Translations under genes and position numbers: made by a program
Assembly (NCBI GenBank): GCA_965655095.1
Contig: OZ296657.1
Location: 33,790,001-33,854,000, forward strand
Direction of reading: 5' to 3'
Source: Haplodiscus bocki
Lineage: Eukaryota
DNA length: 64,000 nt
Notes under the pieces: model-generated
Databases searched by the model: none
What the model was told of the DNA's origin: nothing
The model's input: the letters and a program-made list of their open reading frames with translations, nothing else
In this document: piece after piece, positions 8,261 to 61,910 of the stretch
How positions within the stretch are numbered: position 1 is the stretch's first letter
Layout of the letters: every line of letters begins with the position of its first letter

Positions 8261-8288
8261 AATTGTTAGGGATAAATCGTAAAAATTT

Positions 8289-29097: not shown

Positions 29098-29340
29098 TTT
29101 TCAGAACGTTCTACTTGTTCGTTTTTTTTGTTTCGGTGATTTGAGTCATCTTTTGAACGCAAGAAGACGTGTCTGAAAAGTCAAGAGCGTTTTTGGGAAA
29201 GAAAAATTCGGAGAATGCAGTTTTTGTTGGAGCTAGGTTTCTGGCACTCGGTGGAGGAAGCTTGGACAAGACTTTTTCCAACGCAAAGTCAATTCATTTT
29301 TATACCCGAAAAAGATAGAAAAAATCACACATTTGACGGT
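29098..29340 (+). repeat. ~240-bp direct repeat, copy 2
   Basis: Aligns by eye to 27848-28090 with scattered substitutions. Confidence 0.9.
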
Positions 29341-31945: not shown

Positions 31946-32539
31946 TGAAGTGCAAAATAACTGCCGTAAAGTAGTGTGTGCTCTACCTCTTTTCTCAATG
32001 AATATCTATTTTATGGATCATGGTGCTTAGCATCAATAGCGTTAATTGAGGCGTGCTTTTTTGTCGATTTCCACACTTATAAATGATACATAATCGCGTC
32101 CATGTCATTGGGAGACGAAATATTTTTACATCTTAGCTTTTATATTGAGTATATGATTGTATACATTGCTGCTTATGTTTTTACATTTTAGATAATGCTA
32201 AATAGAGCTAGATGCTTCATAAAAAAACATAAGCTAAGTGCATAAAATAGTTTTTTAATGAGTATTTCCTTCATACGAGCATGATAGTGGAGAGATTGAA
32301 ACCAACTACAAATGGGTTATAAGTGGGTCATAAATACATAAAAAATTTCGATATTGTTCCGGTTTTGCCACCATACAAAAAACATGGAAGTCATAGGAAG
32401 TCATATATGGTGATCTATCGAAACATTAAAGTCAAAGAATGTCACATAGAGGTCCATGATAACAGAACAAAGTCATAAAAAGACCATTATGTTGTGTGAT
32501 TCAATGCAAGTCTTACATTGTACCATAGTATGGCCATAC

Positions 32540-32900
32540 TATGGAAAAGCATGCGCAAATTTCATACGATTACGATAATGTATCCTAATGAATAAAAATT
32601 TGAGTTGAAATACTCATGAAAAACATTAGATTACAGTGTGAAGTTCAAAACTTCTGGCAATCATATGACTGGGGAACATAATAAAAGCCATCTACGTTCA
32701 TTTTTGGTTGTCTGGAAAGAAAAAGGAAATCTTGTGAAATCCCATTCCCAAAAAGTATAGTCTAAAGTGATGTAGTGTTGGACAAACTAGGACAAAGCTT
32801 TAAGTCTTTCTTTCCTAACAAAAACGTGGAAATTTAAATTCTGAAAGATTCCGACGGGCGTTCCCATTGGCAGGTCTTGAAGTTTTCAAGAGCTTTTAAC
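32540..32900 (+). repeat. Dispersed repeat; inverted homolog at ~51500-51860
   Basis: gtgtgaagttcaaaacttctggcaa and ggcaggtcttgaagttttc match the reverse complements ttgccagaagtttcgaacttcacac and gaaaatttcaagacctgc. Confidence 0.7.
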
Positions 32901-36242: not shown

Positions 36243-37620
36243 TATCGCGTTACGCATAACGCTCTAACGTTAATTAATTAAAACATGATTGACTAATGAA
36301 AGCTAACCTTTTGAGGGACTGTCGTTTGATATATAAAAGAAATAGAAAAGCTGAAGAAAATAAATAAAACAATGGAGTTGCATAAATAATTTTTTACAAA
36401 AACTCTAACGCGAGCTTTTTTCCTATTGGCTCCTGCTGCGACAAGCAAAAATCCATGACTGCTACAAGCCTTTTTCCTATTGGTTGCATGAAACGGCAGC
36501 ATGCTGTTATTCTGGAGTCGATCTGGGAAACGGACTTGATCATAACTCGCTTTCCCGCTCAGCGGACGGGACTCCTTACTCCTCTTCTGACTTGCCTTAC
36601 CTTTTTACTTTACTCTTCTTCTCCCTTTTACTTGGAAAAGTTATTCTAAGTCCAACTCCCTTTCTCCCTTTTTCCTCTTGGACGAAAATTTTCTGAATCC
36701 AATTCCCCTTATCTTTCCTCTGGGACAAAAATATTCTAAGTCCAACTTCAATTCCACAAAATTATTCTAAGACAACTCCAAATTCTGTCTTAGCTGCAAT
36801 TTCATTCGCACTTCGCAAAATTATTCTAAGACACTTCCAAATTCTGTCCTAGCCGCAATTTCATTCCCACTCCGCAAAATTATTCCAAGACAATTCCAAA
36901 TTCTGTCTTAGCCGCAAATTCACTCTCATTTCACAAAATTATTCTAAGACAATCCTAAATTCTGTCTTAGCCGCTACATCATTTCAATCCTACAAAATAT
37001 TCTAAGTCCCAATTCTTCCTTACTTAGAAAAATTCCCCTTTCCCTGCTTATTTTACATACTCTTGCCATCGGAGTATAAACGGTCTCCACTGACGCTAGC
37101 TTCGGCATTGGCGTGTGCGGGTTCCGTGGATGAACTTAGGTTCTGAAGCTTGAGTGGATCTTAAATACGCACGAACCCTCACGAGGTTCTTAGGCAAAGA
37201 GAATTGACGTTACTCATAGACCATTCTCAACTCGTCTGCTTCCATGGTCTTTAGAATTTATTCTAAATTGCGAGTTATGGATTAAGAACGCAGAAACCGT
37301 CCATCCTTGATTTCCTTACTTCCATTCCTTGCATTGATTTGATACTTCCTACTCGATTCCTTCGCAAGTCAGGCCAAAAAGAGGAGAGTCCCTGAGTTAT
37401 CAGGAGATCATCCAGCTCCATCAACGGTAACCGTTAGTTAAACAGTTTCCTAGTTCAGACTGAGTAAATCTCTCTGATCAATTTTGACGTTTCATAAATC
37501 CCTTCCGCATTACGCGCTAGACAAACCACTCGGTTTGAAAGAAAGGGAGCTAAGAGAACATCATCAGGTTGCCGCTAAAACGCGAGCTTTTACCTGAGTA
37601 ATAGACAGAAATTAAACCAA
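36243..37620 (+). repeat. 5' LTR plus leader (LTR 3' boundary and PBS not resolved)
   Basis: Homologous to 48356-49612; TATA-like tatataaaag (36329) and gtataaac (37075); CCAAT-type ctattgg boxes. Confidence 0.7.
36757..36992 (+). repeat. 59-bp tandem hairpin array in the LTR (4 units; 2 units in the second LTR)
   Basis: Units at 36757, 36816, 36875 and 36934, each containing ctaagaca-N11-tgtcttag or a one-mismatch variant. Confidence 0.9.
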
Positions 37621-37639
37621 ATCAAACCCCGCCAATAAA

Positions 37640-38748
37640 TCGCCGCCGGAGATGGTGAAGAAATCCGAAATTTTCTTCATCGCATCAAGAAAACTGTGGA
37701 AAAAGGATGGCCAGACGATATGGAAGGAATTGCCCCAGCAGACCGTGGCGCTGAAAGAGCAGCTCAAGGACGACAAAGAAGACAGAGATACATCGACTAC
37801 TCTCTAGAAGGACTCAGACCGAGATATCTACAACGAAAAGCACAGGAGTATCTAATGGAAAACCCGAATGCTACATGGAATGACTTCTCAACGCGAATAA
37901 TTCAGAGGGATGTGTCCTTCCAAGTCTCTTCTAACTTTTTAAACGATGAAGAACAAACCAAAGCTCAGATGGCCACTCTGGGCCAAGAGATGAAGAATCT
38001 ACGATCAGAATCACAAGAACACCGAGTCAACGCCGTAGAGGGAAGCTCTCGAACAGTAGATCCAAATCAAAAAGGAAGACAGAATGCTACACGTTTTTGC
38101 AACTATTGCCGCACAAACGGACATACTCCAAGTTGGTGCCGCAAGAAGATACGGGACGAAGAACTGAAACGAATTGAAAACGAAAGAACTGCCGAGAAGA
38201 CAGTCACCTTTACCCAAGACTACAACAAAAAACGAGGACCAGATCATGGATCGCAACAATGGACTAGAGGTCAGGATTTCCAAGGGAGAAATAACAATTA
38301 TAATAACGACGGATTTAGAAGTTCCCCAAATAATTATCAAAATTTCTCTCCAAGACCAAACTCCGCATATGGGAATAACCGCCCAAACAATGGAGGATCA
38401 CTTGATCAACTACCAAATCAATCATTCAATGGAAACGATGGAAATAGATCCCGAAATGGATCCTTCAACAATCAGAATGGAAGCTGGCGGAACAATGGGA
38501 ACTTTTTCCGTTCTCCATCAAATCCAAGAAGAGATCTCTCACAAAACAATTCCTATCGCCCACCAGGAAATGAACAACCCAACAACTTTGCGTTTCGCAG
38601 ATCTGACAATCGACCTACAGCACACTTTACACCCTATGAACAGAAATTTCCGCAGAACAATAATCAGACATCATCTAATGTGGTTCGTTTCACCACAACC
38701 GATGATACCATAAACGAATTATCGGATCTTTGCCCGTTAAACTACTAA
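37640..38748 (+). CDS. gag: gag (apparently N-terminally truncated) with CCHC zinc knuckle and N/Q/R-rich tail
   Basis: CNYCRTNGHTPSWC (CX2CX4HX4C) at ~38098-38139. The open frame starts without an ATG at GDGEEIRNFLHRIKK. Confidence 0.85.
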
Positions 38749-38794
38749 GGTCTCCGAACTTGAACACTGACACATCTCGGAATTCAAGACTTAG
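38736..38794 (+). promoter_or_regulatory. Putative -1 ribosomal frameshift signal (G TTA AAC plus downstream stem)
   Basis: Heptamer is in gag phase, one codon before the TAA; pol lies in the -1 frame. Complementary pairs tccga/tcgga, cttgaa/ttcaag and ctaag/cttag follow. Confidence 0.7.
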
Positions 38795-39614
38795 CCTCAA
38801 CATCTTCTACTTCGCCACCGGAGACACTCAAAAAGATACTGGTTTAGAGATCGAATTCATGTTAGACACAGGAGCTTCTTGCTCAATCATCAATTACCGA
38901 ACATTTTGGGAAATTTGCCAATTACAGCACCCAATAACTATACAGAAAAGTACCAAAGTGACAAAGACTTACTCCGGACAAACAGTTCCAATGATCGGCT
39001 ATGCGACTATCACTTTTAGTTATGACCCAGATGGACAATTTATATTCCCACTAACAGTGTGGATCACTGATATGAGGACTCAGAATCTCCTTGGCATGGA
39101 CTTCTGCCAAAAACAGGTTTCTGGAATCCATTTTGATCTACCTGGGATCGAGATAAGGAACCCTCCTAAGTCAATCTGTTATGGCAGTTTCCACCAAAAC
39201 AAATCTTGTCCTCATTTATCACAAATCTTGACTATTAGAACCCTTCATACGATGCTTATTGATGCTAAGAGTGCCCGTTGCTGGAAATATTCGCCTACAG
39301 ACACTCATATACACTTCCCACCAAGCTCTACGTTTCAACCAAAACGAACTGCTGTGGCTACTGACCTGTTTTTCATAAATACTCTATGCACTCGATCTGA
39401 ATGTAACCTTCCAATATTGATGGAAAACAACAAAAATCACCAGATAACGCTACCAAAGGGACGTATCGGATTCTCTTCTTTTGACGTGGTTGATCGAGAC
39501 GAACCGAAATGCCAAATACGAAGTCCCTATGAGTTAACAAACGCTATAATCTCTACCGATGAACGATACAATGATTGTTTTCTCTTGCATTCAACGGTTC
39601 AAGCTCAGATTAGT

Positions 39615-40060
39615 GACGACTTTCTACAGATCACCTATGGTACAGAAGATTCAATTTTCCAACAACCTAATTCAATTGGACATTGCATATCCGCGGACGC
39701 CCGAATGGGTAAAAGTTTCGCTGATTTTCTTTCCCACAGAATCCCTGGTCTTAGATCAACCTGCCGAAAAGCAAAGCTTTTCATGCGACAAGTCTTCCCT
39801 TTTTGGGATTCAACAGGACAACGCTATATCTACAACTTGGTGACTAAAGGGAGGTTTTGTGATAAACCCAATTTACCAACACTGTCTAAAACATTAGAAG
39901 CAATGAAAATTCATGCAGGTACAAACGGTGTTTCTACTATCGCAATACCCAAACTTGGTTGTGTCCTAGATCAAACGAATTGGCAAGTGGTTGTAAAACT
40001 ACTTCGAGATATCTTCGCCTATGCTGACATATAAAATTGTAGACTATACTCTCGAAGAAA
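39615..40060 (+). other. TARG1/OARD1 (Poa1p-like) macrodomain within Pol
   Basis: SIGHCISADARMGK, YIYNLVTKGRFCDKP and IAIPKLGCVLDQTNWQVV are the hallmark motifs of the TARG1/DarG-like macrodomain class. Confidence 0.9.
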
Positions 40061-43000
40061 ATGGAGTTCACGCACTGTCCGCCAAAGGCGACGCTGAGTT
40101 CTATGCCGACGATGAGATAGAACGATACAGTGAAGAATTTCTCCTAGAGAACCGTGAGCTAGAAACAGACTTTACTAAAGATTCTAAATCCTGTCAACCA
40201 ACCTGTGACGAGCAATTTCCAGTTCTCCGTGAGAAGGTTCACAACAACCGACTCATTGATCATTATCTTCAATATCAGCCAAAAGAACTCAAAAACTACG
40301 TTAAAGAATTCGACTTCCAGTATTCAGACATCACTGACGAAGAAATGGTACTTTTGATTGACATGATAGTTGACGACGCGATGTTTATTCTCAACATAAA
40401 TTCGATGTGGGCAAAACCCGTCAGAACTTTCATGCCACACTGAAACCCAATGTTGAACTGAAACGAGAATGACCTATCAATGTTCCCCTACACCTGAAGG
40501 AAAAGCTAGAAAAACTCCTCACACAACTAAAAGACGCAGATATCATTCGCGAAATGGGTGACAACAACGAGATGGGATCATTATTTGTGAATCCGATCAT
40601 CCTAATGCCTAAAAACGATTATGTGAAATTAGTGATTGACGCGAGATACCTTAATTCAGTGACTGATCTTATAAACTACTCCTGGCCCTTAGAACCAGTG
40701 CAGATGATTATGACCAGGGTCAATGGCAAAAAATTCTCAGTAAGCGACCTTTCGTTTGCCTATCATCAAGTTCCATTGAGCCCAGAAACACAAAAGTTAA
40801 CTAGTTTCATCATTGGTGGAAAACAGTACACCTACACATGTGGATTTTATGGCTTGTGCGGACTCCCAAACTTCTTCAGCCGATTAATGACAATACGTTT
40901 TGACCCACTTATCAAGAAAGAGCAAGCAATCACCTACATTGATGATACAATAATGCAATCACAGAACAAGAACGAAATGTTCACAGTTATCAACGAGTAC
41001 CATACCCTTCTTCGGAAGGCAGGTCTTAAGGCAGCACCCGACAAAACGTTCTTCTTCTTAAAGAAAGTTTAATTTCTTGGCCATGTTATATCCTCAAAAG
41101 GAATCCAACCCATTGCGAAACGAGTAAAGGATTTAAAGGATCTTAAATCACCTGAAAGTAAACGAGACGTCATGAAAGTTCTTGGATGCCTTGGATTCTA
41201 CAGTTGCTATATTAAAAACCTCCATGTGGATAGTCAGCCCTTTTATGACTTAATTAGGGATTCGACCCCTTTCCACTGGACACACGAACACGAAAAATTG
41301 TTCCAAACGATCAAGGACAGAATTAGCGAAGACACGATCCTTGCTGTACCCTCCAATGATTATCCCTTTCACATTCACGTAGATTCATCGAATGTTGGAA
41401 CGGGCTGTATCCTAATCCAACAGTTTCCTGAGGGAAAACGAATAATCTCCTTCAACTCAAGAATTTTCGACAAAGCTAAACAGAAAATGTCTACTCTTCA
41501 TCGAGAACTTTGTGGAAAAGTCTCAGCCTTACAAACCTATGAACACTATATTATTGGATCTCCTTTTCCCATATATCTATATTGTGACCATAAACCATTC
41601 CTGTACTTATGGAGACGTAAAGGACAACTATCCCATCGGTTCTTCAGGTACCAAGTCATCATAACGAAATTCCAAAATCTCAAGATTATCTGGACCCCAG
41701 GATCAAATCATGTTTTCCCTGATATCTTAAGCCGAAACGTAACAGTCGAAGAATACCAGAAACATCAGCTACAACTTAAGAAAATACCTAGGGACATAGA
41801 ATTCTATGACGAACATGGCTCTCCAGCAACATATCGAATTCAACAGGATGATAATCCTAACGACACTTGCAATGACTTCTACCCAATCCATTGCCAACAA
41901 GGAATTGATAGCAAGGTACTCCGCTTGCATAATGATGGTGAAACTTTTACACTAAATAGTCTGATTAACGAGTTTCCTTCAACACCAATACAATCTGCAG
42001 CCGATTGTTTCCGATTAGGCAGAACATTCAATCAATTCCGACGTTTGCGTCTACCCTCAACTCAATCTTTGAACTCGGTAGAAGCCTCTGAACCTACTTA
42101 TAGTTCGATAAATTCATTGAACACTAGCGAAGATGATAATACATTCGAAGAGACCTATGATAACGAAGGCGATGCCGCCGCTGTTGACGATGAGGACAAC
42201 CTAATATGTGAAATGAACACACACGCCGACCACTACAGATTGTGCAAAGCCAAAGCAGCTCACGATGCTGTCTCAGGAAAATTAAACGCTTCCTTAGTTA
42301 AGAAACCACTAACAGTTAATGATGCACCGCATTTGGAAACTAAACCTTTAATTGCTAAACTAGATGATGTTGCTAAAACAGTTGATCTTGACGTATCCAC
42401 GATCCTGGCAGAATAAATTAAAGACCCAGTGCTTGGAACAGTTAGGTCATGGATCCGAAAAGGAATTTCACCCGAACCTAAAACTCCTGAGATTCAACAA
42501 ACAAAGGGACTCTTGAGATAATGTCAAGATTTCGATCGACTCTTAATTGAGGAAGAAGGACAACTCTTATGCTACAACGAAACTACTGACAAACTAGGCG
42601 ATGAAAACCTACGATTTTGCCTACCTTTATCCCTATTCTTAGCATGTTTCAGACTCGAACATTACAACGAAATGGGTGGAAACATGGCAGCCGCAAAGAC
42701 CTATAACAATGCAAAACGATTCTACTACTAGCCTGGCGTGTTTGATTGGATATGAGCGCTTACCGCTGATTGTCTCACTTGCCAAAAAAACAAACCGAAG
42801 CCTAAACACAGGAACGAAGTACCACTAGAAGAATGGCAAAACGAGACTGTCCCGTTCCGAACAATTCACGTAGATCACAAAGGACCACTTCACCCACCAA
42901 GTAATCGAAATCTTCATTGCCTCTTGGTCATCGATGCATTCTCTCGATTCTTAATGGTATACCCAGTTACTAACACGGGTGCTCAAGCTACTACTTCCGC

Positions 43001-44220
43001 CGTCGAGAAGTGGATTCATTCCTTCGGAATCCCTCAATCTATTGTGCATGATCGAGGTGCGGCTTTCATCAATACCGAATTCATTAACTGGACAAAAGAA
43101 TTGGGAATCACTTTACGACCTAGAACAGCACATTCACCTTGGACTAATGGCAAAATTGAAACTCAAAACCAACATATCGCCCGCTATTGCCAAAACTTCT
43201 TGAACGACGCTGAAACAATTGGTCTTCCTTGGCACCTAAATTTGCTTTTGCACACAACACAAGTGTTAACTATATAACTGGGAAAACACCTTATGAAATT
43301 GTTTTTGGTACCAAACTTCAGATCCCTATGTCTCTCAAACCTGGACTTTACCGCAACAAACACAAAATTTGCTGTTCTGATTTCTGCAAAGACCTACCAT
43401 CTCATTCACATAGTAAGAACAATTTAAAGAATCAGCTACTAGACAATGTTCTTCGACCACAACTTTCTCACGCCCTCCTGGAACGAGAACGCGATTTTCA
43501 AAAGAATCTACTCTGCTACTTTCGAAAGATGCCGCGAGCAAACAGCCAGATCACATGCCTACAGAAATCGATTCAAACCAGGACAACACTTAGAGATAGG
43601 ACAGAAGGTTCTCCATGAAAATCATCGCCAAGGCATTTCCAAGAGCCAAAAGCTTCAACAAAGACGACTCGGAACTTTCACGGTTATAAAATGAGTAACT
43701 AAAACAACCTACCAAATTCAAGATGATAAGGATCCTATGGTTCTGAAGAGCAAACTATTCTCCTCTCAGCCTTACAACAATTTACAAAATTTCCGCACTT
43801 CAAAAACACACATCCTTTAACTAGACACTTAGTCATGGAACTCATCCGTCAGTGTCAATCTTCGATCTCTGAAGATCAGGCAACAAGCCCAAAACGCAAC
43901 AAAACAAACCACGATTAAAGATATCCAATGGTTGAGGTGAGTTATTTTTACATATTGAATTTGGCACTTTTTTGGTGATACCGGTTTCATTCCGGCACCT
44001 TTTATAAAATCTCGACGTCGTTTTAACAGTAGTGGAGCTACTACTATAAAATTTTAGCCCCCACTTTGTGTTAGTGCCCACAAAGCGCCGGTTTGATATT
44101 ACGGCATTTTTTAATAGCTATTCCTCTGAAAAAATAGAGTGAACTTCCACTGGGAAACCCCGTGACGACGCTATTTTCCTTTTTTTTAATAGTTATTCCC
44201 TCTGAAGTAACATTCCAGAG

Positions 44221-46407
44221 ATGGAACGTCCGCTGCAAAGTTCAGCGACGACGCTATTTTTCTTTCAACTCCTCGTGTTTTGTTCCGAGGTTGGTTACAC
44301 TTTAGTTCCAGATGCAGACCAGGTTGCCCCAGCTCCTAAAGTGTCTCACTTCGACTGCAGCTCAATGACAGAAAACTCCCTTTATGCAATCAATCAAGTA
44401 CGGCCGTGTCACATTACACCAGAAGAACTGGAAGTCAGCAAAGCCACAATTACACTTTACACCAAACACTTTCGGAAAGAACTTAATGCAACAAAATGCC
44501 GAATACAACACCAACGCGAGAAGTGGCACTGCGTACATAACGACCATAGTAGCATTGACCACACTATTGCTGGAATAACCAGTGATTTGATTATCTCACC
44601 AGAACATTGCCGAACTCTTGCAAAAGGAGCCAATATCAATTTACAAGGCGACTGGATTGGCGCTGAATGGGACACAAAGACTCCTGTTGTTAAAGTTTCT
44701 GGTGATCCGTCAGGCTCAAATAGAAATCATTGCAAAACGAGAGGCTGGATTTCAAGGGATACCTTCATCATCCACATGCAGAAGACAACTCTAAAAGTCA
44801 CGATGGAAAAAGGAAAAGTGTTATGTGATATGGGATTGATTTTACCTTGCGCTTTAGAAGAACTTGGTTGCGAAACAACTTCACTCGACCCATATGCCTA
44901 CACCTGGGACTACCCTGACAATTGGTTGCTTTCCGTCCTCCGAACAGAAGAAGTCAACATGGTTAAACAAGACACAAAAGACTACGTCATTAGCGGGAAG
45001 GACTCTACGTCCAAATTTGTGTTTGAAGTTAAACATAATCCACAAAAACATTGCGGGAAGCCTACACCTATTTATCCGACAAATTAAGACTCTTTGTATA
45101 TGGCCCGACTTAGTGAAGGTTTCGACAAGAACACTGGAAGAAACCTTGACCGTGAGAAGAACGGCGCAACTAAAATTCTTCAGTAATTCGGACCGAGAGC
45201 GAAAAATGACTTTGGTCAACTCTATGCGCATAACCCTCAATTGGAAGGCACTCAGTTACAACAAGCAGACAACCCGAATAGCTACTTGAACATGGATTAC
45301 GAAATGCACCTCGGAACCAAGATAGACTATCTGTTCTTCCAAAGTTCGAGACTCCTCCAAGCGACTGAAATACAGCTACTACAGAACCAATGTGAACAAG
45401 AGCGCACCCAGATTTTCACTAATCTGATGCTCGCTCTCGACAACCCACGGTTACCAGGCTATATGCTAACAGGGAATAGATCTATGTTCCTAGAAACAGA
45501 CGGCAGCCTTGCCTGGCTCTATCATTGTCCGAAGGTCCACTCCCCACTCCATACGATGAATCAGTACTATGATAAGATACCCATACTCTACGAAGGTGAA
45601 ATTCGCCTCGTCGACCCAATTACACGACAAACTTATCCTGACGCTGTTCCACAGAACTGCTCAGATCGGATCCAGAACCTCTTCCAACTTGATATGGATC
45701 AAGAAGATTCCTGGTACACACTCACGCCTGGCATAGTACACCAGGACAGATCCGCTATCTTTGGACCTAAGAAGATAACACCGATGTCTGCGCAGTCTCT
45801 CACTGGATCACAGGATGCCGGCATGTATACAAGAAACGAACTTCGCGGATTCTGGGACAATATTCTCATTAATGCAGCTTCAAGAACCGCGCTAAAAAAG
45901 TTTTCCCAGAACCTGATTATTTACTCTACTTCTCCGGAAGGATCTGACGGATTCCACTATTACACTCCCAGAATTGAATTTTATGTGGACAAAATGATAT
46001 CCCGGAATGCTTCAAAGACCGGTTCATGGACACGTTTGGACCTGTTGCATATGTACTTGAACACTGCGGGATTTATTTCTCTGTGTTTTTATTTTTCAAA
46101 CTCATAATAGACGTTGTGGTTATGGTAATACGCCACTTACAAATCTCTAGAATGACCGGTGCATCGCTTGGGTTCGGTAAGACCCTTCTAAGCGCCTCAT
46201 ATAACATCTTCCTCATGTCAGTGTTAACTTCAATGTATGATCCACGCACGCCTACACTCGCCGCGGTAGAAGAAGAAAGAAAAACTCTCTGTAACGGAGA
46301 AGAGTTACATGATATGAGAGACACTCCTACGAAAAAGGAGGAGCATATTTATCCTGTCATGAACCGGCTCAATTTAACCAAGCCGTGACACCAATTTCCC
46401 CCGTTTA
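44221..46407 (+). pseudogene. env: env-like glycoprotein, chuvirus-G-like / class III fusogen
   Basis: Signal peptide MERPLQSSATTLFFFQLLVFCS. Cys pattern HFDC..RPC..TKCRI..WHC(V)HNDHSS, then heptad LQATEIQLLQNQCEQER. C-terminal TM CGIYFSVFLFFKLIIDVVVMVI. Two stops (45085, 45184) and frameshifts near the 3' end. Confidence 0.8.
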
Positions 46408-46456
46408 ATTTTGTCTTACTTTTTTTAGGCCAAATTACACTCAATCCTTCCACCTT

Positions 46457-47052
46457 GTGACGATTCTCTTTCAGTCATCTCCGACCCAGAAGAAGATTTC
46501 CGACCCTTTACGCCCTCAGGCTTGGACCATCCTACTAACTCTGGCATCACTTTCCTATCTCCTATCTCTTCTCACTCACAGATACCCTCTAACCCAGCTT
46601 AGCCTGATGAGCCGCAATCTCTAACCTTGCTATCGACTAGTCAGCCCCCACCTATACACCAAGACGACGCCCCTCCTACATTAATTGGCTCACAAATCCC
46701 AATTTCTTCACCTGAAGCTAGTCCTTCCGAAGACAACCAAGAACTTCCCCCACTTAGTTCCTTTCTCTCTGACGTTCGGCCCCTTCTCTCCAGGCCTAAT
46801 CAACTCAAACTTCAACCTGATCAATCTGTTCTTGGACGCCAACACCGTCGTGAATATTACACAAATCATGCCCGCAGAACAAAACGACCCCGCTTTAATC
46901 AACAATTACAATATTGCCTCAAACCAGAGTTCTGCAAGTGGGAAAAAATATTTTGGGATGGCAAGCGTCAAGAATATACAATTCAGAGCACATCTCTCCC
47001 GTCTCAACGCCTGGTAGTACCGCCACAGGCAATCACAGCACTTCCTCACTGA
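46457..47052 (+). pseudogene. Accessory ORF of unknown function (Pro/Ser-rich, basic NLS-like RRTKRPR)
   Basis: Frame of ORF 46627-47052 extends upstream through one stop. Its TGA overlaps the next ATG (TGATG 47050-47054). Confidence 0.5.
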
Positions 47053-48314
47053 TGTCGCTAAATCCTCTTGCACCCGTTTTCCTTCCTCCTCCTCAACCTT
47101 CCTCTGACCCACCTATTTTGTTGTGCAACCCTCCTACAATGGGTATTCCCTTGGCTCAATTAGTTTGCGGAATGCTCCCACAAACTCTTCCCTCTCATGC
47201 TCCTTCTACCAACCAGCACATTGTTGACAACACTCTCCTCTTACCTCTTCTCCAGCCGACAACTCAGTTTTAGCCGGACGCAGCAGTTCCCCCGCCAGCC
47301 CCTGGAACCACTTGAATACAGAACAAATAGACAGGCAAACATTACGACTCATTCTACTCCAATTACAAAATGATTTTGCCTTACTGCGATATTTACTCTT
47401 CTCTAACAAGGAGTTCGCCGCTAGACGCTCTGCTGCCAGTCCTTTACCTAACCCTAAGCCTAACCCTACTTCCACTTCTTCTGCTCTTCCACATTGAGGC
47501 CCTCGTGACCCCACACTTCATCGTCTTACCCCGGTGGGCGCTGTGGGAACAGCCAAAACAAGAACAAACGATACTACACACACCAATTCTCAGCCGACAC
47601 CCAACTCGCACGAAGCCCCTTCGATCAAATTGCAGAACCTTACATCAAGATTCTCCAAATTAGAAAAGTTGTTTGCCAATGAAGTATCAAGTTACACATC
47701 CATCACTGCGGGAATCCACTCCCAATACTTTTTCCTATACGATAAACTTCGCCAGCTCGAACCTGGACATTCAGATGTCATTATTTGGAAAATCCCAAAT
47801 CCCCTCAGTGAAGTTTGTATTTGACTCCGCAAAAGTGGCCCGACCATCATCAGATCCCCTCATCGAACCAGCTACAAGTTTCAGCAGCCCCATTTTCAGG
47901 ACTCACCCCCATGGCTATAACTTCTTCATCAAACTCTACCCGTATGGTATTGGACCCGCTACGGGTAAGTGCGCTTCGATCCTATTCACACTTTTCCCAG
48001 GAGACTATGACAATCTTCTCCAATGGCCCTTCACAAACATCATCCATATTGGTATTCGAGACCAGCTGGACCCAATGAACACCTGGATGAAGACAATCAA
48101 ACCCGATCAAGACCCAGCTTACAAGAAGCCTACAATGACAACAAAAACTGGAGTTGCAACAAGCCTAATTAATAACTTTATTCCCCACTCCAAACTGTTT
48201 AGGGAAACTGAAGGTTCTCTAATTGATGGTGCGTTCTTTATTGAGATTAAATTTTCTGACCCGCTTGTGCTGGAACCTCACACGCAAACTTCCCTCCTTT
48301 TCCCTTTTCCGTAG
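47052..48314 (+). pseudogene. Accessory ORF: PAM2-like motif + Pro-rich + coiled coil + TRAF-type MATH domain (no RING)
   Basis: VIIWKIP..SFSSPIFRTHPHGYNFFIKLYPYGIG..SILFTLFPGDYDNLLQWPF..IRDQ..AYKKP..NFIPHSKL..FFIEI is TRAF-C. Removing a 7-bp duplication (aaatccc 47790-47803) restores the frame. Confidence 0.88.
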
Positions 48315-48340
48315 AGCCCCTCACTCATTTTCACTTCCCT

Positions 48341-48352
48341 TTGAGCGGGGTG
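48341..48352 (+). promoter_or_regulatory. Short polypurine-tract-like site before the second LTR
   Basis: ttgagcggggtg immediately precedes agttatcgcg, where LTR homology begins. Confidence 0.5.
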
Positions 48353-49612
48353 AGTTATCGCGTTACGCATAACGCTCAAACGTTAATTAATTAAAACATG
48401 ATTGACTAAGGAAAGCTAACTTTTGAGGGGTTGTCGTTTGATATATAAAAGGAATAGAAAAGCTGAAGAAAATAAATGAACCAATGGAGTTGCATAAATA
48501 ATTTTTTACAAGAATTCTAACGCAAGCTTTTTTCCTATTGGCTCCTGCTGCTACAAGCAAAAATCCTTGACTGATACAAGCCTTTTTCCTATTGGTTGCA
48601 TGAAACGGCAGCATGCTGTTATTCTGGAGTCGATGTGGGAAACGGACTTGATCATAACTCGCTTTCCCGGTCAGCAGACGGGACTCTTACTCCTCTTCTG
48701 ACTTGCCTTACCTTTTTACTTTACTCTTCTTCTCCCTTTTACTTGGAAAAGTTATTCTAAGTCCAACTCCCTTTCTCCCTTTTTCCTCTTGGACGAAAAT
48801 TTTCTAAGTCCAATTCCCTTATCTTTCCTCTGGGACAAAAATATTCTAAGTCCAATTTCAATTCCACAAAATTATTCTAAGACAATTCCAAATTCTATCT
48901 TAGCCGCAAATTCACTCTCATTTCACAAAATTATTCTAAGACAATCCTAAATTCTGTCTTAGCCGCTACATCATTTCAATCCTACAAAATATTCTAAGTC
49001 CCAATTCTTCCTTACTTAGAAAAATTCCCCTTTCCCTGCTTATTTTACATACTCTTGCCATCGGAGTATAAACGGTCTCCACTGACGCTAGCTTCGGCAT
49101 TGGCGTGTGCGGGTTCCGTGGATGAACTTAGGTTCTGAAGCTTGAGTGGATCTTAAATACGCACGAACCCTCACGAGGTTCTTAGGCAAAGAGAATTGAC
49201 GTTACTCATAGACCATTCTCAACTCGTCTGCTTCCATGGTCTTTAGAATTTATTCTAAATTGCGAGTTATGGATTAAGAACGCAGAAACCGTCCATCCTT
49301 GATTTCCTTACTTCCATTCCTTGCATTGATTTGATACTTCCTACTCGATTCCTTCGCAAGTCAGGCCAAAAAGAGGAGAGTCCCTGAGTTATCAGGAGAT
49401 CATCCAGCTCCATCAACGGTAACCGTTAGTTAAACAGTTTCCTAGTTCAGACTGAGTAAATCTCTCTGATCAATTTTGACGTTTCATAAATCCCTTCCGC
49501 ATTACGCGCTAGACAAAGCACTCGGTTTGAAAGAAAGGGAGCTAAGAGAACATCATCAGGTTGCCGCTAAAACGCGAGCTTTTACCTGAGTAATAGACAG
49601 AAATTAAACCAA
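48353..49612 (+). repeat. Second (shared) LTR plus leader
   Basis: Copy of 36243-37620 with two fewer 59-bp units. Confidence 0.8.
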
Positions 49613-49631
49613 ATCAAACCCCGCCAATAAA

Positions 49632-50740
49632 TCGCCGCCGGAGATGGTGAAGAAATCCGAAATTTTCTTCATCGCATCAAGAAAACTGTGGAAAAAGGAT
49701 GGCCAGACGATATGGAAGGAATTGCCCCAGCAGACCGTGGCGCTGAAAGAGCAGCTCAAGGACGACAAAGAAGACAGAGATACATCGACTACTCTCTAGA
49801 AGGACTCAGACCGAGATATCTACAACGAAAAGCACAGGAGTATCTAATGGAAAACCCGAATGCTACATGGAATGACTTCTCAACGCGAATAATTCAGAGG
49901 GATGTGTCCTTCCAAGTCTCTTCTAACTTTTTAAACGATGAAGAACAAACCAAAGCTCAGATGGCCACTCTGGGCCAAGAGATGAAGAATCTACTTTCAG
50001 AAATACAAGAACGCCGAGTTAACGCAGTAGAAGGAAGTTCTCGAACAGTAGATCCAAACCAAAAGGGAAGACAGAATGCTACACGATTTTGCAACTATTG
50101 CCGCACAAACGGACATACTCCAAGTTGGTGCCGCAAGAAGATACGGGACGAAGAACTGAAACGAATTGAAAACGAAAGAACTGCCGAGAAGACAGTCACC
50201 TTTACCCAAGACTACAACAAAAAACGAGGACCAGATCATGGATCGCAACAATGGACTAGAGGTCAGGATTTCCAAGGGAGAAATAACAATTATAATAACG
50301 ACGGATTTAGAAGTTCCCCAAATAATTATCAAAATTTCTCTCCAAGACCAAACTCCGCATATGGGAATAACCGCCCAAACAATGGAGGATCACTTGATCA
50401 ACTACCAAATCAATCATTCAATGGAAACGATGGAAATAGATCCCGAAATGGATCCTTCAACAATCAGAATGGAAGCTGGCGGAACAATGGGAACTTTTTC
50501 CGTTCTCCATCAAATCCAAGAAGAGATCTCTCACAAAACAATTCCTATCGCCCACCAGGAAATGAACAACCCAACAACTTTGCGTTTCGCAGATCTGACA
50601 ATCGACCTACAGCACACTTTACACCCTATGAACAGAAATTTCCGCAGAACAATAATCAGACATCATCTAATGTGGTTCGTTTCACCACAACCGATGATAC
50701 CATAAACGAATTATCGGATCTTTGCCCGTTAAACTACTAA
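49632..50740 (+). CDS. gag: gag, second copy (same N-terminal truncation)
   Basis: 350-aa ORF nearly identical to 37696-38748. Confidence 0.85.
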
Positions 50741-50965
50741 GGTCTCCGAACTTGAACACTGACACATCTCGGAATTCAAGACTTAGCCTCAACATCTTCT
50801 ACTTCGCCACCGGAGACACTCAAAAAGATACTGGTTTAGAGATCGAATTCATGTTAGACACAGGAGCTTCTTGCTCAATCATCAATTACCGAACATTTTG
50901 GGAAATTTGCCAATTACAGCACCCAATAACTATACAGAAAAGTACCAAAGTGACAAAGACTTACT
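50722..50965 (+). pseudogene. pol: Truncated pol (protease N-terminal half), second copy
   Basis: LDTGAS present; homology to copy 1 stops after gacttact (50965). Confidence 0.9.
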
Positions 50966-53059
50966 TCTGCTACTATCGCTAATGCGTGATTCATTTTCCA
51001 TTAGCGCAGTTGTTTCTTTTCCCATTTGATTATATTTGCTTCCCCGGATGACTGAATAATTGATTATTTCACTTTCAATTTTCCCTCCATCGCTCATAAA
51101 GTCCTTGCTTTGAACTTACGCAATTTTTGTTCGCGAGGCCTGCAAGGCACCTGAAAGTAGATCAATAAAAGCCCCTGAGACTTATTTCCATTAAACAAAA
51201 CAACTGCTGCGGCGCCACCGCTGTATTGATCTAGCTAACAAAAGGAACGCTAATCACCTGCAGCACTAATCGAGAGAGAAAATTAGAACTAGAAAAAGAA
51301 TTAAATTCAAGCATTAGTTCTACTCTCCGCATGCCCGTAGTAATATAGCGTTCCCCCTTACCCCCTCGCGACATTACTTTCATTGCCAATATATTCTGCT
51401 AGAAAAGAAATTCTTTTTGAAAAAATATTTACCCAGTAAGTTTTAAAGGACGTCTGAACTGTGCTTCTGTAACGAAAAAAAACAAGTAAAGATTAGTGAG
51501 TTCTGAAAATTTCAAGACCTGCTACTGGGACAGCGACTTTCAGAGCTCTTGTCAAGAAAGAAAGACTTTGTAACTTTGTCCGAGTTTTCGCAACACTATA
51601 TCACTGCAGGCAATACCTTTCGGAAACGGCCTTTCACTACTTCTCTCCTATCTGATTCGAGGCAAAAAGTGAACCTAGATGTTTAATATTTTGATCTATT
51701 TATTATGATCCTCAGTCATACTTTTGCCAGAAGTTTCGAACTTCACACTTCAAGGCAGTGTTTTTGTTTTCCATGAGTATTTTGAGTCAGATTCACGCTC
51801 ACTAGAATCTAGAATACGTTATCACAATCTAACAAAATTCGCGCAATCTTTTCCGTATTTTGGCATAAGATCCAGTTTATGGCTTGCATGGAATCGTCAT
51901 ATAATATGTTTTTTCAATGAATTGCATGTTACTATACCCTTCTATGGAACTTCAGCAATGAACTGTCCAATTTAAAAAATTAACTGATAAATATTAGCTA
52001 TAATCCCAACAAGTCTTTACCTCCTTACTGAATAGCTTTCTGGAAAAATTATCCATACTTTCTGGACTGGCAGCTCTTTATTCATTGGGTCAACAAGATT
52101 TGTGTGAAACTGAGAGTTCACTTAAATGGCTTGTTGGCAGACAGCTGGTTTTTGAGGTGAACATTCTCTCACTTCTTGAAAATTTTCTCACTCAGAAGAC
52201 TTGGTCGACTTTTAAGGAAGGTTTTACGAAACGCATTGCAAATAGTAGACGAGCCCATTTCAACTCATTCAGAACCACACTTCAAAGGTTCTCGGGAAGT
52301 TGTTTTGCACATTTTTCGGCATTTTTAAAGTTTTGAAATGTAGCATTTAATTAGAAGAAGAAGAAGAAAAAGAAAAAGAGTTTATTTCTCTATCAGTAAA
52401 AATACAGTACAACAATTTATCACGGAAACAAAGTTATAGAGTAAACAACAAATGGACCACACGGGACTTTTTTTACTGTGGCCCACAAGACCAAATATTC
52501 ATCAATTCAACGAAACCTCAGTCAAGCCAAGTCAAAACATGATAATAACGAGATAACACATCCCAAAAAAATATAACACAGAAATGGTCAATTTTTTTTC
52601 AGTATTTCAGTTTTTCAGAACCTTTTTGCAAATTGATAGCAAAAAAACCCAAACAGAGACCTTGGCCAACATTAATTGCATTTTGAAATCAGCACGGATT
52701 TTCAGCTGAACCGATTTCTGTCAGAGATAAATCCGAAAAACTCACTTAGCAAATAGGAAAGCGAAAAAAATCGGAACATTTTTGCCCATACCCTACACTT
52801 GCTTCATTTTCTCCCGGGCCCTGCCAACCAAAACCTCTTCCCTCTAGTAACACCGCCTTGTACCGATAGACCTCTGATAGTTCCATCCACTGGACATGGA
52901 CCGTCTAACTTAGCTCAAACAGAGTGGGGATTGGTTGGCAGAACCACTACGAGAATACGAGGTGAAGCATAAACTCAAAGAATATGAAAAAAAAAGATGA
53001 AAGTTCATCGACAGTTTTTAACAGACAAAGATGTAGTTGACCAGACCACTGTTCCCTAG

Positions 53060-55830
53060 AATAAAAATGTTTTCTATTCGACGCATAAATCATTGAATTC
53101 ATTTGAATTCAAGTTTATTTCACCGGCTTTGATTCTTTTGCTAACCAAAAAGTAAAGTGAACAATTTCGCAGCCCTATACATCAGTGAGTATTTGTGAGG
53201 CCTATAGGAGGCTATTGGTACCACAAGATGAGGAGCGTTCGAATGTCTCACTTTTCTTCTAGTGCAAGCATATTAAAACAAATTTTTAAGATAAGGTTCT
53301 GCATGCATGCTGGAGAGAACCTATACCGAATTTTAACAGCTCAATAATGAAAAGCTCAAGAACCCATAGTATTTGAATTTTCACAAACAATGCGCTAATG
53401 TTTTCGCTAGATTTCTGAAAAACTAAGGCCCCACTATTTTCGTTGAATTATCAAAACTTCCGATAAACCATTTGGAGAGCAACAGTCAAAAATTAAAAGT
53501 TCGTATTAGAGGAGCGCCGTAATGTTCAACTTGTAATAGCCAACGAGCGCGTGTTTAGGCACATAGTGTCTCATACTCGCAACAATGCCGCACTGGCGTC
53601 TTAACTTCAAACGAAACTCGCTAAAAAAAGAATGAAACCATAATTTTGAATCTGAAATCACTCCCAAGTTTTTGCTTGACTTTTGCGGAAGAAGCACAGT
53701 GTTATCCTTTTATAGGAAGAACTGGCAGCCGTTTTTTTTCGGTGTGTCCATGTATCGGGTTTTGTCCACATTATGAATCAGTTTATCCGTTGGAAAGCAT
53801 TTTCGTAGTGGAGCTACGTCTTTTGCTAGTTCTGAATCTGATCACTGAAGTCCAAGAGTTGAAGGATCGTATGCAAAAGGGAAGGTTTCTGAAAACAAGC
53901 ATACGTTGAGTAGATCCTTGATCAAAATGAGAAAAACAAGTGGACCAGGTTTTGAACCATATTGCTCTCCACAACTTTTTTTCCTTTTTTCTGACAGGAC
54001 TCCGTTGAGGTCTACTTACTAGCAGCGACAGGAAAGATAGCTTTTAAACTGTTTCTTAGACAAGCCGGATAATCCCTATGCTTCCATTTTCTTCAGTAGG
54101 ATACTGTGGTTCAATGTATCTAAAGTCTCCTGCAGATCTAGCAAAAGTGTGCTAACCTCTGATCCCTTTTTCCTCCTACGCAATTTTTTTAATTTGATCG
54201 CATCAATGGTTTTGCGATTTTTCCGGAAGCCAAATCGCTTGCACTAGAATAAATTGTTCAATTCGGTGAAATTGTTCACTCTGATGTAAACTTCCGTCTC
54301 AACAATTTTACCGATGGCTAGGAGTGAAGAAATTAGCCTATAAAGAGTTAACTTCTCGTTCGATCCTTTTTTATAGAATAGAATGACGTTCGCCACAGCT
54401 AGTTGACCAGGAAAGACTCCTGTAGGGAATGATTATTATATCAATTTGACCAATGTTCCGCTAATAGCATGAGCTATAGACTTCAGAATTACAGTACAGC
54501 GTTTGATGAATGCTTATTTGCAAAATTCGTTAGAATTTTTGAAAGTTCGTCGTCGTTTGTTGAATAAAGTCATATGCAGAAGTCAAGAATAACTTGACGC
54601 ATTAGAGGCTCTTTCATTTCGGGTAGAAAGGACACTAAATTTTTTTCCATTTTCAATGAAGTAATCGTTGAAGGCAGTGGCTATCTCTGTCTTGTTCACT
54701 ATTCTATCTCCTTTCCTATACTGTGCTGATGTTTTCCGAAGTTTTCCGAACTCCTCTTATGATTTCGGGAAACCTATAATTTTGTTTAGAATCACCAGCA
54801 AAACTTTCACATATACCAACTGAATTATTCAAACTAGCTGAACCTGACTCCGCTATGCACACTTTCACGCAATTCTTCAAACTTACAAAAAATGTCTATT
54901 CTTACCGGTTCTTAGCCCATCTCTGTGGGCTCGATTTCGATTGCTAATGAACTTTTCAAGTCCTTTAGTAAACCAAACGGATTTCGCCATTTAATGATCA
55001 CGGGATTCCTGCATTAGAGCAAATTTATCCGAAGTTTCATTCAAACTTTGAATAAAATGTCGCATTTATGGTATAGAAATTATAGGCAGACTAAAGGCCA
55101 ATCGACTTAAATTATCCATAAGAACGAAATTCAACCTTTCAATTTTCTGGGTTTTTCAAAAATGCTGCTTTCTATAGAATACACGTTCACTTATTGCTAC
55201 TGATTTTGACGGCATGATATTGACAAAAGATAATGATCCAAAAGGCGTTGCACTGAAGACATAATTTTCAAAATTCCTTTTAATCATGTGATCGAGACAT
55301 GTTTTTGACTTATGTGTTGCACGTGTTGCATCCTTATTCAAAATCATCGATCCATTACCTTGTATTGTATCTAAACACTTCCGCGTTAGGTTATTGGACT
55401 TTAGAGTATCAATGTTCAAATCATCAAAAACTATCATAGGACGTATGCCGGAACGTAGACTCTTTGAAAACAATTTGAAATGTTCAACCAAAACCATTTT
55501 GACTTTTCTTGGTGTGGTGCAAAGGACAATCACGATAAACACCACTAGCTAAATTGTGGCACTAAACTATCATCAAATGGACGCTGAAGTTTTCTAATTG
55601 AATTAAATTCCCCGCAAAAGTGGAGCCTACCACCATCGCCCTTTTTTTCTGGAGTTAACTGAGCATCTGTTATACGTGTTTATGAAATAGCACCATGGTT
55701 CATCGTCAACACGGAGCCGGGTTTGTGTTGAATCTATAACATGTGCTGGTGACTCAACATTACTGATGAATGCTTCTATTTCTTCGTAATGTTTGCTTCG
55801 GGAACGGGAATTAATATGCAAGTTATCAAA
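53060..55830 (-). pseudogene. LINE ORF2 (APE endonuclease + RT)
   Basis: LHINSRS, DDLNID, TRATHKSKTCLDHM (APE). LLDLQETLDTLNHSILLKKME, QGST and KNLGVISDSKLWF (RT). Confidence 0.8.
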
Positions 55831-55949
55831 GTTAGATACTTCAGTGATACAACTCGTTTCAACGTTTTTACTGACCGACTTCGTTCCCCCTGATCCTTGA
55901 TTGCTCGAGAAACATCCCTGTATATCAAAAACAGACTGCCCCAACATAA

Positions 55950-56797
55950 AACTTCCATCGTACAATCCTCTGACGCTGTGCAGTTTCGTTTCGTTGTTCT
56001 TCTTGAAAAAGATAGTACCGTCTCTTGTCCACATGTGGTCCCTTTCGTCGTCTGATTTCAAACATATAAAAATCGAAGACTCCGTAAAGTTAGGTCTTCA
56101 AAAATTTTGATAGGTTTCACATCTCGCAGTGTTCCAAGGTGTTTTTTCTTCTGCAGCATCTCTATTTGAGCTATACGTCTAAAAAACTTGACAATGATTG
56201 TGCGCTCCTTGCTTTGGTTCCAGCTTGGCACACGATGGGCAATTGGAATGTCCTATAAAGCGACACTGGTGTCCACTTTTTCGACTAGTTGAAGGACTTT
56301 CTGCATTGACTGCGAATAGCTTTCGCTAACTTTGCTGTGGCTGCTTTGGTCTTCCTTGACACCCGCAATTCTGATAATATCCCGCCTATTGCAGGATTCA
56401 ATCAGCTCAGATTCAGACATTGTTTCCAATTTACATCTTTTTTCAGCACTTTCACCTTTTTCACTGATAACTTTCTCAACCTCGGTTGATATCTGTTTAA
56501 TAGCCTCATCAACTGCCTTGTTTTTTTTGCTGTTTTCCACGAGATTGTTTTGATTCTGCCACTCATTTCTGGCATTAATTCAAATATTGCACTACTTTTC
56601 GTCGCTTCCACAAGGGTTTGATTGCGCATCTGGCAAGTTGTTGGGTCACTCATCGGGCTATATCCCTCTCTGAATCGCTTTCTGTCAGGTCTGATAGGCG
56701 TCTTTGAATCATCATCTGTCCGACTCTCTGAAACTTCCTTAATTTCAATTGATTCTAGCGGCTCATCAGCTGATTTCTCTTGTGTTCCATCGGCCAA
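55950..56797 (-). pseudogene. LINE ORF1 (coiled coil + RRM-like + CTD)
   Basis: NRRDIIRIAGVKE, IPIAHRVP, TIIVKFFRR, IFEDLT and WTRDGTIFFK motifs. Confidence 0.8.
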
Positions 56798-58150
56798 CTC
56801 TGAAACTGTTTAATATGTTTATCACAACAATTAGACTCATTGTCACAACAATTGTCAGTTGTCGCATTAGTTCTAGAAGGTAAATAAAAATGAATTCGAG
56901 CATATCTGATGTAGATAAAGTTCTGAGGGCACTAATAATTTTTTGTCACAACAAGCTGAAGTGATGCGGTTTCTGTTTTTCGGCAAAACTTCTTAGGTTG
57001 AGTATGCAATCACTGAGGAAAAGCCGATGATTTTCATGAGTGACTACATATTGAACTACTTGAACAATGAGGAGAAGCAAAATTTCGAAGCAATAACAAA
57101 ATAAAATTTGATCTACATATTGGCAAAAGGAAATTTCCAACAAGAATTTGTGGCAACAACAATTCCCCAATTGATTACATAATTTAGGTTTAACAAATTC
57201 CGATCGATTCCCACCTAGTACATGTGTCCGATTCGCCGCTCAGACGTTCGAAAGGAAAATCAGTCGATCACAATGCAACGTGAACTTTAAAGGAAGTAAC
57301 GCTGCATCAACCACCAAGTTAACTATTAAAAATTTATACGACGACAAATCAAAGTTTCGAGTAGAGGATCTAAAACGATTGGTTTGTAACGGCAATTTGC
57401 ATTATTTTCCAACCAAGATTGTGCTGAAGGAAAGTGAAGTTAACTGTTTTTAGTCGGCTTTTTATTTTAGTCAAATGCCGATATTACAGTGGTTTCTTCT
57501 GTTATTGACATAATTCGGAATATATTGAAGACGTGTGCACCGGAGACGTGTGCATTACATTGAAATTTTATAATGTACAAGGTACGCCAATTGTTCACTG
57601 AGAAGATTAGTTGAAACAGGTTTCAGATAACTCAATTCTTTTCAAAACAATTTTAGCACAAACAAATCACTATATGAACTCTGTAGCATGCAAAAAATGG
57701 TTTTGAGAACGAATATACTCACGTAATTAGAACAAAGTCCGTTTGAAAGGCTCTTTTGGAAAACGCTAAACATCAAGTTTTTTTGTAAAAAGTACAACAA
57801 ACAATGATTCCATTTTAGCTGCATATACATCGAGCAAAGTGCCTATAGATTTTTTTGGCACTCCAAACAGTGGAAAGGACCAATTGATTACGACACTAAT
57901 CAGGGAAATTGAAAGCATGTGTTAGTAACGAGTTTTTGTTTCAATTTTTTTTAGCCAATTTTTACATTTGCGCAATACCAGAAACACCTACGTTATCGTT
58001 GTATTTCTTTTTTAACGCTTCTTTCAACGAGAGATAATTATAGGGACATTAATTTTCTCAGTTAATACCGTGTCGAACTTGATTGATTTGAGATGAAAAT
58101 GAATTTGGCCGCAACTTCTTTGCCTAACTGTCGAGGTCAACATAAATAAA

Positions 58151-61100: not shown

Positions 61101-61910
61101 CAAGAATTTTGGTGAAACATAGAGTCGGGTATCACAAGAAGCAGTCGAATTTTTTTGTCCCTGAGAAAAATTTCGTGACGGGGCACTTTCGGTGTTTCTA
61201 AAAGTTTCTGGTGTCGATAAATAACGCTTAGTCACCTTTGTCGTCAATTTGTTTTCTCTCACAGTACCAAAAAAAAATCAGAGGGAAACCCTTCTGTATT
61301 TATAAAAAAAAGTTCTGGTATCGAAAATTTTTATGCATGAGAGTGTGTATCACGATTTTCCGTCTAAAAATTTTTGTCTCTTAGAACCGAAGTTTTTCGT
61401 AGAAGGGACCTTTTGGTGTTTGCAATTACCTGCTTGTGTTTTGCATAAATTGCTGGTGCATGCTTTAAAATATTTTGGCGCGAAAGCAATTCGGGAAAAG
61501 AAAGAAAATTCGTTGTTATCTTGAAAACAATGACAATATTAAAAAAAAGTACCTACAAAGTCAGCTTCTTAATTCATAAAGCTCCGACTAGAAATCGGCG
61601 GAAAACATTTGCTTTGGTCAGAGTGGAACCAAAAGAAGGCAAGAAAATTCAAAGTGGTATAAATGAAGTGAAAAAATATAGGTAAATGCTGGGATCCGAA
61701 CAATATATGTACCCTTTCGTCTTAGCCATTGTGCCTTGTGAACCATTGGAAATTGTGACAAATGTCAGCGAAATCGTAAACATATAAAGCAGGACAGAGA
61801 TTCAAGCCCAGACCTACTGCTTGAATAAAAAACTGGCAAAAATACATTGAAAAAACGACCCTACTGAATGAATAATTCTTTACATATTTAAAAATGTGGG
61901 GGAAAATAAT
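58151..61910 (-). mobile_element. Longer, older member of the same Helentron/HINE family, with ~2.6 kb of internal cargo
   Basis: Left end aacaagacgggagggtagcaccggcatttgttttgcccaa matches 7388-7430 (minus-strand end TCTTGTT). ~120-bp repeats at 60990-61420. Right end aaaaacgaccctactgaatgaata matches 8406-8430. Confidence 0.6.

Follow-up and report, generated by a model that had tools for sequence, protein, structure and literature searches.

The closest published counterparts of the element considered here are the env-carrying Ty3/gypsy elements, 1512 of which were surveyed by Chary & Hayashi (eLife 2026; PMC13524379). In the available parts of that survey, gB-type, chuvirus-like Env proteins are found in Ty3/Gypsy across many phyla and are as abundant as F-type ones; the chuvirus-like glycoprotein of mosquito BEL/Pao elements also adjoins gypsy POL (114 arthropod elements); and flatworm elements have the order GAG-ENV-POL. 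The genome list, as far as it is available, holds no Xenacoelomorpha, and acoel names do not occur in the accessible text and supplements. These data bear directly on a first-pass annotation of this locus, which took Gypsy Envs to be of the F type only and read a chuvirus-like Env in a Gypsy element as an independent capture. The premise does not hold: because the survey describes gB-type Envs in Ty3/Gypsy, the combination is already in print and fails as a claim of novelty.

How does the locus compare? The window (the whole stretch of 64,000 nucleotides that was analysed) holds what is very probably a degenerate member of a multicopy Ty3/Gypsy family that carries env; by the operational definition of Chary & Hayashi it counts as an "errantivirus". 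Its Env is one more lineage of the recently published, widespread gB-type class and overturns nothing; what the element carries besides Env matters more.

Layout of the element and its Gypsy affiliation

The element is bounded by LTRs, spans 12.9 kb (36243-49099), encloses env and has the order LTR-gag-pol-env-ORF4-LTR (Table 1). A direct-repeat comparison within the window puts the LTR pair at 97.3% identity (20 mismatches over 744 aligned nt). The 5' LTR lacks the canonical TG at its 5' end; 59-nt tandem repeats occupy 36686-36998, and the 3' LTR has two fewer of these units. The PBS-like site matches neither of two 9-nt PBS motifs taken from the available supplements of PMC13524379. Beyond the 3' LTR, the second unit ends at 50965 and resembles the first closely in its leader (99.8% identity), gag (98.9%) and pol start (100%). 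A partial unit about 99% identical to the first lies just after the second LTR, which suggests that it arose later, as a tandem duplicate by way of the LTRs. We also note that this unit is 99% identical to the first, yet the LTRs differ by 2.7%, and that mismatches cluster in the 5' third of the LTR and at 38003-38094 in gag.

Table 1. Features of the element and of the unit that follows it, in window coordinates
Feature	Coordinates	Strand	Remarks
5' LTR	36243..37107	+	865 nt; CA at 3' end; two extra 59-nt repeat units
PBS-like sequence	37109..37126	+	putative; begins TGG, directly after LTR
gag	37639..38748	+	CCHC-type knuckle, N/R/Q-rich tail; about 110 N-terminal aa apparently missing
Aspartic protease of pol	38841..39110	+	Pfam Asp_protease_2 E 1e-4, gag-asp_proteas E 2e-4
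TARG1/OARD1 (C6orf130)-like macrodomain in pol	39624..40031	+	between protease and RT
RT (YIDD)-RNase H-integrase	40377..43751	+	Pfam RVT_1, RT_RNaseH_2, rve; broken
env, predicted class III (gB-type/Monjiviricetes G-like) fusion glycoprotein	44221..46408	+	Pfam PF24664, AlphaFold model; broken
Env transmembrane segment	46065..46142	+	hydropathy peak 2.41
Acidic stretch and YxxPhi-type motif EEHIYPVM, predicted cytoplasmic tail	46338..46361	+	from translation
ORF4	47052..48314	+	PAM2-like N-terminus, helical segment, low-complexity linker, coiled coil, TRAF-type MATH
Purine-rich tract, PPT-like	48341..48355	+	from sequence; precedes 3' LTR
3' LTR	48356..49099	+	common to element and following partial unit
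Tandem partial second unit	49100..50965	+	PBS, leader, same 5'-truncated gag, protease start

That the host element is of the Ty3/Gypsy type, as first annotated, is supported by sequence: it combines LTRs, PBS-like and PPT-like sites, the PR-RT-RH-IN order, and RNase H and integrase C-terminal domains of the Gypsy type, with Pfam matches along pol, and Ty3 RT (4ol8; E 4e-35) is the best match in the PDB. The RT-RNase H-integrase frame is interrupted by 10 stops and by frameshifts, and is 82.6% identical to that of a natural relative, P0392, whose Pol has the order PR-RT-RH-H2C2-rve-p58C/SH3 (SH3_Tf2-1 being a sub-threshold Pfam match); identity of pol to its nearest natural relatives is 83-91%. 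The gag is 33.5% identical to aa 110-267 of another natural relative, P0416, in which aa 63-129 match Retrotrans_gag (E 3.6e-4). A BEL/Pao host was considered and rejected: neither the window ORFs nor P0392 carry a BEL-type Pfam family, which we take to mean Peptidase_A17, DUF1758 and DUF1759. In a quick RT tree of 80 rows (13 of 92 matches were dropped as too short), the family makes up 44 rows and forms a clade on a long branch (1.61), apart from all named Pols, which are plant, fungal, nematode and errantivirus sequences; because the branch is long and the tree has no BEL/Pao outgroup, it is by itself no proof of Gypsy membership. Between the protease and the macrodomain lies a Pol segment of about 160 aa (39126-39605, +) that is conserved in the family and has no match in Pfam, nor among PDB sequences at E<=1; its likeness to a dUTPase is no more than tentative, and it is left unassigned.

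No tRNA and no Rfam match turned up, and 13 flanking ORFs gave no convincing Pfam match. A degenerate inverted repeat pair (32498-32821 and 51549-51895; 67%) flanks the element, a direct repeat (87%) lies at 27840-28083 and 29090-29333, and a degenerate, satellite-like family with a repeat of about 120 nt occurs at 7543-8273 and at 61246-61418, 53 kb apart. Broken ORFs at 55159-56809 (-), with a weak Baculo_FP_2nd match (E 0.019), resemble in our judgement what is left of the ORF1 and endonuclease of a non-LTR element, and an AT-rich ORF at 9190-9708 (+), with a CxxC motif and no Pfam match, presumably resembles Polinton-associated proteins.

The env gene and the fold of its product

The window env represents a real gene, in a copy that is dead. 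It opens with the ATG at 44221 and keeps one frame to about 46002, apart from TAA stops at 45085 and 45184; one frameshift lies at about 46002 and a second after about 46364, and the transmembrane segment and EEHIYPV (46338-46358) are in a different frame from the main one. When the gene is read through with X, it matches Pfam PF24664 (Monjiviricetes_fusion) at E 6.4e-28 and 97.5 bits, well above the gathering cut-off of 27 bits; the stop-free pieces match separately (E 1.7e-9 and 1.7e-18; 36.6 and 66.4 bits), and so do all 45 aligned Env relatives. Fourteen alignment columns hold cysteine in at least 38 of the 40-45 non-gap rows; the window copy has kept 12 of these cysteines and lost two. 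Intact natural relatives exist in large numbers. The nearest, P0003 (729 aa), is 94% identical to the window Env (93.6%) and is the representative of a 90%-identity cluster with 850 members; 401 env relatives were found by search, and 1005 proteins match env at E<=0.001 among 50%-identity representatives. Env relatives grade far down in similarity, to 22% identity.

Much of what had been read in the protein at first pass is borne out. The N-terminus is hydrophobic, in keeping with a signal peptide as judged by hydropathy only (Kyte-Doolittle 19-mer peak 1.61 at aa 11), and the N-terminal cysteine pattern lies where it was placed: FDC at aa 44-46, C63, KCRI at 92-95 and HC.H.DH at 103-109 (TAA read as X). 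The long helix is present in the model (48 residues, H360-407), with QCEQER (390-395) near its end rather than, as described, at it. The C-terminal transmembrane segment is likewise borne out by hydropathy, and its peak is 2.05-2.79 in all 18 Env relatives of at least 680 aa; the tail, by contrast, does not stop at EEHIYPV, since the Env of the nearest natural relative continues for about 15 aa beyond it. A YPx-hydrophobic tail motif recurs in 15 of the same 18 relatives; motifs of the YxxPhi type have a role in sorting. By hydropathy, the N-terminal hydrophobic segment and the C-terminal transmembrane segment give the protein a type I topology; by alignment, its cysteines, presumed to form disulfides, are conserved.

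The fold was approached through an AlphaFold2 model built from the 45-sequence alignment (pLDDT 72, pTM 0.42), which displays long beta-hairpins, a central helix of 48 residues and, at the C-terminus, a domain rich in beta structure. In Foldseek, herpesvirus gB fills all 35 PDB rows listed (best E 2.8e-12); in BFVD, an unnamed protein ranks first and ranks 2-9 are G proteins of xinmo-, chu- and qin-related and other negative-strand viruses (E 1e-25 to 6e-22). VIA-align of Env against gB gives Z 11.6 and an rmsd of 13.6 A over 360 aligned residues. In an unbiased structure search of 48,161 chains, gB comes first (Z 9.7, rmsd 23.4, 444 aligned); next come isolated gB domains II and IV (2.9-3.6 A) and the Chandipura and rabies G proteins. 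A profile of the Env alignment run against PDB sequences returned one match, unrelated, at E 4.2. TM-scores of the model are 0.22-0.30 to gB and 0.2-0.5 overall; low TM-scores and a large rmsd are to be expected when a hinged protein is modelled as a monomer, and these values together with the pTM make the orientation of the domains unreliable, so that the claim is limited to fold class only.

Which class is it? A class I Env like baculovirus F was considered and rejected: no F-type protein appears among the 35 PDB, 50 BFVD and 50+50 VIA rows listed. The two marks of class I are lacking as well: an R-x-K/R-R furin site is absent from P0001 and P0003, the Envs checked, and their ectodomains hold no internal hydrophobic 19-mer above 1.5 that could be a fusion peptide. 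The matches to gB and to Monjiviricetes G, with no class I fusogen listed, identify Env as a class III fusogen; PF24664, Foldseek, BFVD and VIA agree on the gB/chuvirus-G-like fold proposed at first pass, and the structure search produced herpes gB in the PDB and viral G proteins in BFVD, as the annotation had anticipated. Its narrower label, "chuvirus-like", goes too far, because G proteins of xinmo-, chu- and qin-related viruses match Env alike, at 13-16% identity. Within the limits of the model, env is shown to encode a type I membrane protein with a class III fusogen fold.

Class III fusogens are trimers that insert fusion loops into the target membrane and then refold. By analogy, an intact Env of this family would form a trimer, insert its domain-I loops into the target membrane and refold around the long central helix, like gB and rhabdovirus G. 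Such a protein could let Gag particles that bud from one cell enter another, for example in passing from soma to germline, and the YxxPhi motif of the tail probably routes it to the budding membrane. The window copy itself cannot support Env-mediated transfer because of its stops, its frameshifts and the loss of two of the 14 conserved cysteines.

How did the gene come to be in this position? Chuvirus G EVEs are common and include solo copies, according to the available part of Dezordi et al. 2020 (PMC7642597), which makes it conceivable that a negative-strand virus EVE landed by chance in an env-less Gypsy element. This is highly improbable: env sits in the canonical position and strand after the integrase, inside near-identical LTRs, it occurs in hundreds of copies, and it has diverged much as pol has (93.6% for env, 83-91% for pol).

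That this Gypsy lineage acquired a chuvirus G gene separately, in a capture of its own, as the first-pass annotation had it, deserves more weight and is nonetheless unlikely. The family RT clade stands on its long branch away from all named gypsy Pols, and errantiviruses lack a single origin in the available parts of PMC13524379, both of which would suit a capture. The same holds for P0476, a gypsy-type polyprotein whose PF24664 part comes ahead of protease and RT (env-pol order). P0476 was considered as kin of the window Env and rejected: its PF24664 part is missed by BLASTP, which gives no significant match, and by the Env profile, in which it does not rank with the top scores when set against 200 shuffles. 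On the other side, there is no close viral donor, the best BFVD matches reaching 13-16% identity and coming from several virus families; the gradation of Env relatives, which reaches down to 22% identity, fits long residence; and PMC13524379, as far as available, argues for an ancient origin with rare swaps. The spacing of cysteines in domains I-II also speaks against a separate capture, since this family has it in common with flatworm gypsy and mosquito BEL Envs: it is 11/26/41/39/7/18/43 in P0003, 11/25/41/47/7/18/49 in the mosquito BEL-51 row and 11/25/41/45/7/16/~69 in the Schmidtea gypsy C1a row (the latter two counted by eye in the PMC13524379 supplement); among the rows shown there, the cnidarian, ctenophore and tunicate ones look unlike P0003. 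Our preferred account, held with high confidence as part of the whole explanation, is that Env has long diversified within this retroelement lineage and belongs to a widespread chuvirus-G/BEL/gypsy group of the gB type.

ORF4 and the Pol macrodomain

If the Env is of a published kind, what sets this element apart? Two further modules resemble host proteins, and probably both are accessory cargo of the element. The first, ORF4, is broken in the window by a stop at 47495 and two frame changes. Its C-terminal part matches Pfam TRAF-mep_MATH (E 4e-17) and, in the PDB, TRAF4/TRAF5 (E 3e-12). The N-terminal RING and zinc fingers of a canonical TRAF E3 ligase are absent: a RING-like pattern was found in none of 120 ORF4 relatives, and in one natural relative, P0272, Pfam finds MATH only. 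What ORF4 does have, a coiled coil with a TRAF-type MATH domain after it, is the arrangement of a TRAF adaptor. Its AlphaFold model, which includes a helix at 229-269, has low confidence (pLDDT 40) and is too poor for a fold search. The N-terminal motif, which we take to be PAM2-like, recurs in 70 of 120 relatives. Some ORF4 relatives begin about 40 aa upstream, and the 640-nt gap between env and ORF4 (46409-47051, +) contains overlapping Pro/Ser-rich open frames at 46603-47052 and 46685-47017, the former with no Pfam match.

ORF4 might be nothing more than a hitchhiker in the element, either a nested insertion or an inert retrocopy of a host TRAF, and the broken state of the window copy and its poor model agree with this. 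So does the linkage evidence: env, pol and ORF4 are observed together in this window only, and a comparison of contigs of equal size, made on the best 120 of 401 env relatives, 120 of 168 ORF4 relatives and 50 family Pols with no null, finds five in common between env and ORF4, one between pol and env and one between pol and ORF4. Against a passive passenger stand the relatives, with an open frame retained in at least 168 clusters of proteins 379 aa or more in length; the position of ORF4, whose end lies 41 nt short of the 3' LTR; its collinearity with natural relatives by tblastn, with no introns; and the pattern of conservation. Median identity to P0272 is 100% for the PAM2-like 12-mer (n=82), 82% for the coil and 91% for MATH, with 66-67% for the N-terminal and linker parts; the MATH value is inflated because MATH served as the query, and the PAM2 value is not. 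On balance the hitchhiker is quite unlikely, and ORF4 is probably a selected gene borne by the element.

The second module lies within Pol. It matches TARG1/OARD1 structures (PDB 2lgr/4j5q) with a phmmer E of 7e-20, the LxTK and GCxLD segments being aligned; we take these to hold the catalytic Lys and Asp of TARG1/OARD1. The macrodomain is present in 17 of the 26 family Pols that span the region, and among the 9 that lack it, 7 show a spacer shorter by about 130-150 aa. All 17 fall in one 28-row RT clade (support 93), which suggests that the macrodomain was gained once in the family.

Why would a retrotransposon keep such modules? A tentative and somewhat doubtful proposal is that this is a complex invertebrate errantivirus whose accessory genes come from host defence and are selected for. 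The RING-less TRAF, with its coil, its MATH domain and a PAM2-like, PABP-binding start, might act as a decoy that jams TRAF-dependent innate signalling or ties it to mRNA fate, and the TARG1-like macrodomain, once released from Pol, might strip ADP-ribose marks. In this proposal selection would keep both because the gB-type Env gives the element an infectious cell-to-cell phase; a role in counter-defence is its uncertain step. If a high-copy env element carries both a TRAF gene and a TARG1-like macrodomain, this would suggest that invertebrate errantiviruses, like true viruses, act against innate signalling and ADP-ribosylation in their hosts, and an apparent expansion of the TRAF gene family in the host would, if the cargo reading is true, be largely transposon cargo.

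Comparison with known elements and viruses

With the G proteins of Monjiviricetes (Chuviridae, Xinmoviridae and relatives) and with gB, the modelled Env shares a PH-like domain II, a long central helix and a beta-rich domain IV; identity is 8-16%, and Env is encoded by a retrotransposon whereas its counterparts are encoded by RNA or DNA viruses. Anakin, a BEL/Pao element (Dezordi et al. 2020; PMC7642597), holds the same type of Env inside its LTRs, and the cysteine spacing of Anakin-type mosquito BEL Envs is near-identical to that of the window family. The hosts differ: Anakin, in the available description, is BEL/Pao, and the window Pol is built of Gypsy-type domains, with no match to a BEL-type Pfam family.

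The gB-type errantiviruses C1/C1a, in the available parts of PMC13524379, have in common with this element a Ty3/gypsy Pol, the order GAG-POL-ENV, a signal peptide, a C-terminal transmembrane segment and multiple copies, and also the lack of a furin site; the eight-cysteine spacing of domains I-II is, by eye, like that of the Schmidtea C1a, Insecta C1 and mosquito BEL rows. The env-pol order of P0476 is that of the GAG-ENV-POL elements in the same source. Unlike the elements of the survey, as far as they are described in the available parts, the window element is 12.9 kb long and has a fourth ORF, and its Pol contains a macrodomain; the accessible text of the survey uses neither "TRAF" nor "macro", and at the places shown in the supplements these strings turn up only as parts of sequences or species names. 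Should the host phylum lie outside the sampling of the survey, whose available list lacks Xenacoelomorpha, the Env would extend it. An acoel such as Symsagittifera is a tentative candidate for the host; its genome, with 36.7% GC and LTR elements making up half of it, is compatible with this without being diagnostic.

In the literature searched, mostly open-access and with Repbase and Dfam outside it, there is no description of acoel env-carrying elements, nor of TRAF/MATH or a macrodomain in a Gypsy or other LTR element. Cargo of a comparable sort is on record. In the available parts of the sources, rotifer LTR elements carry ORF3 esterases and exonucleases (PMC5408684, in which TRAF, MATH and macro do not occur) and fish epsilon-like ERVs have macro domains (PMC4977317); like ORF4 and the Pol macrodomain, these are host-like enzymes or domains carried as extras. 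The macro domains of fish, as described there, are additional ORFs of true retroviruses, whereas the macrodomain of the window element lies inside a Gypsy Pol.
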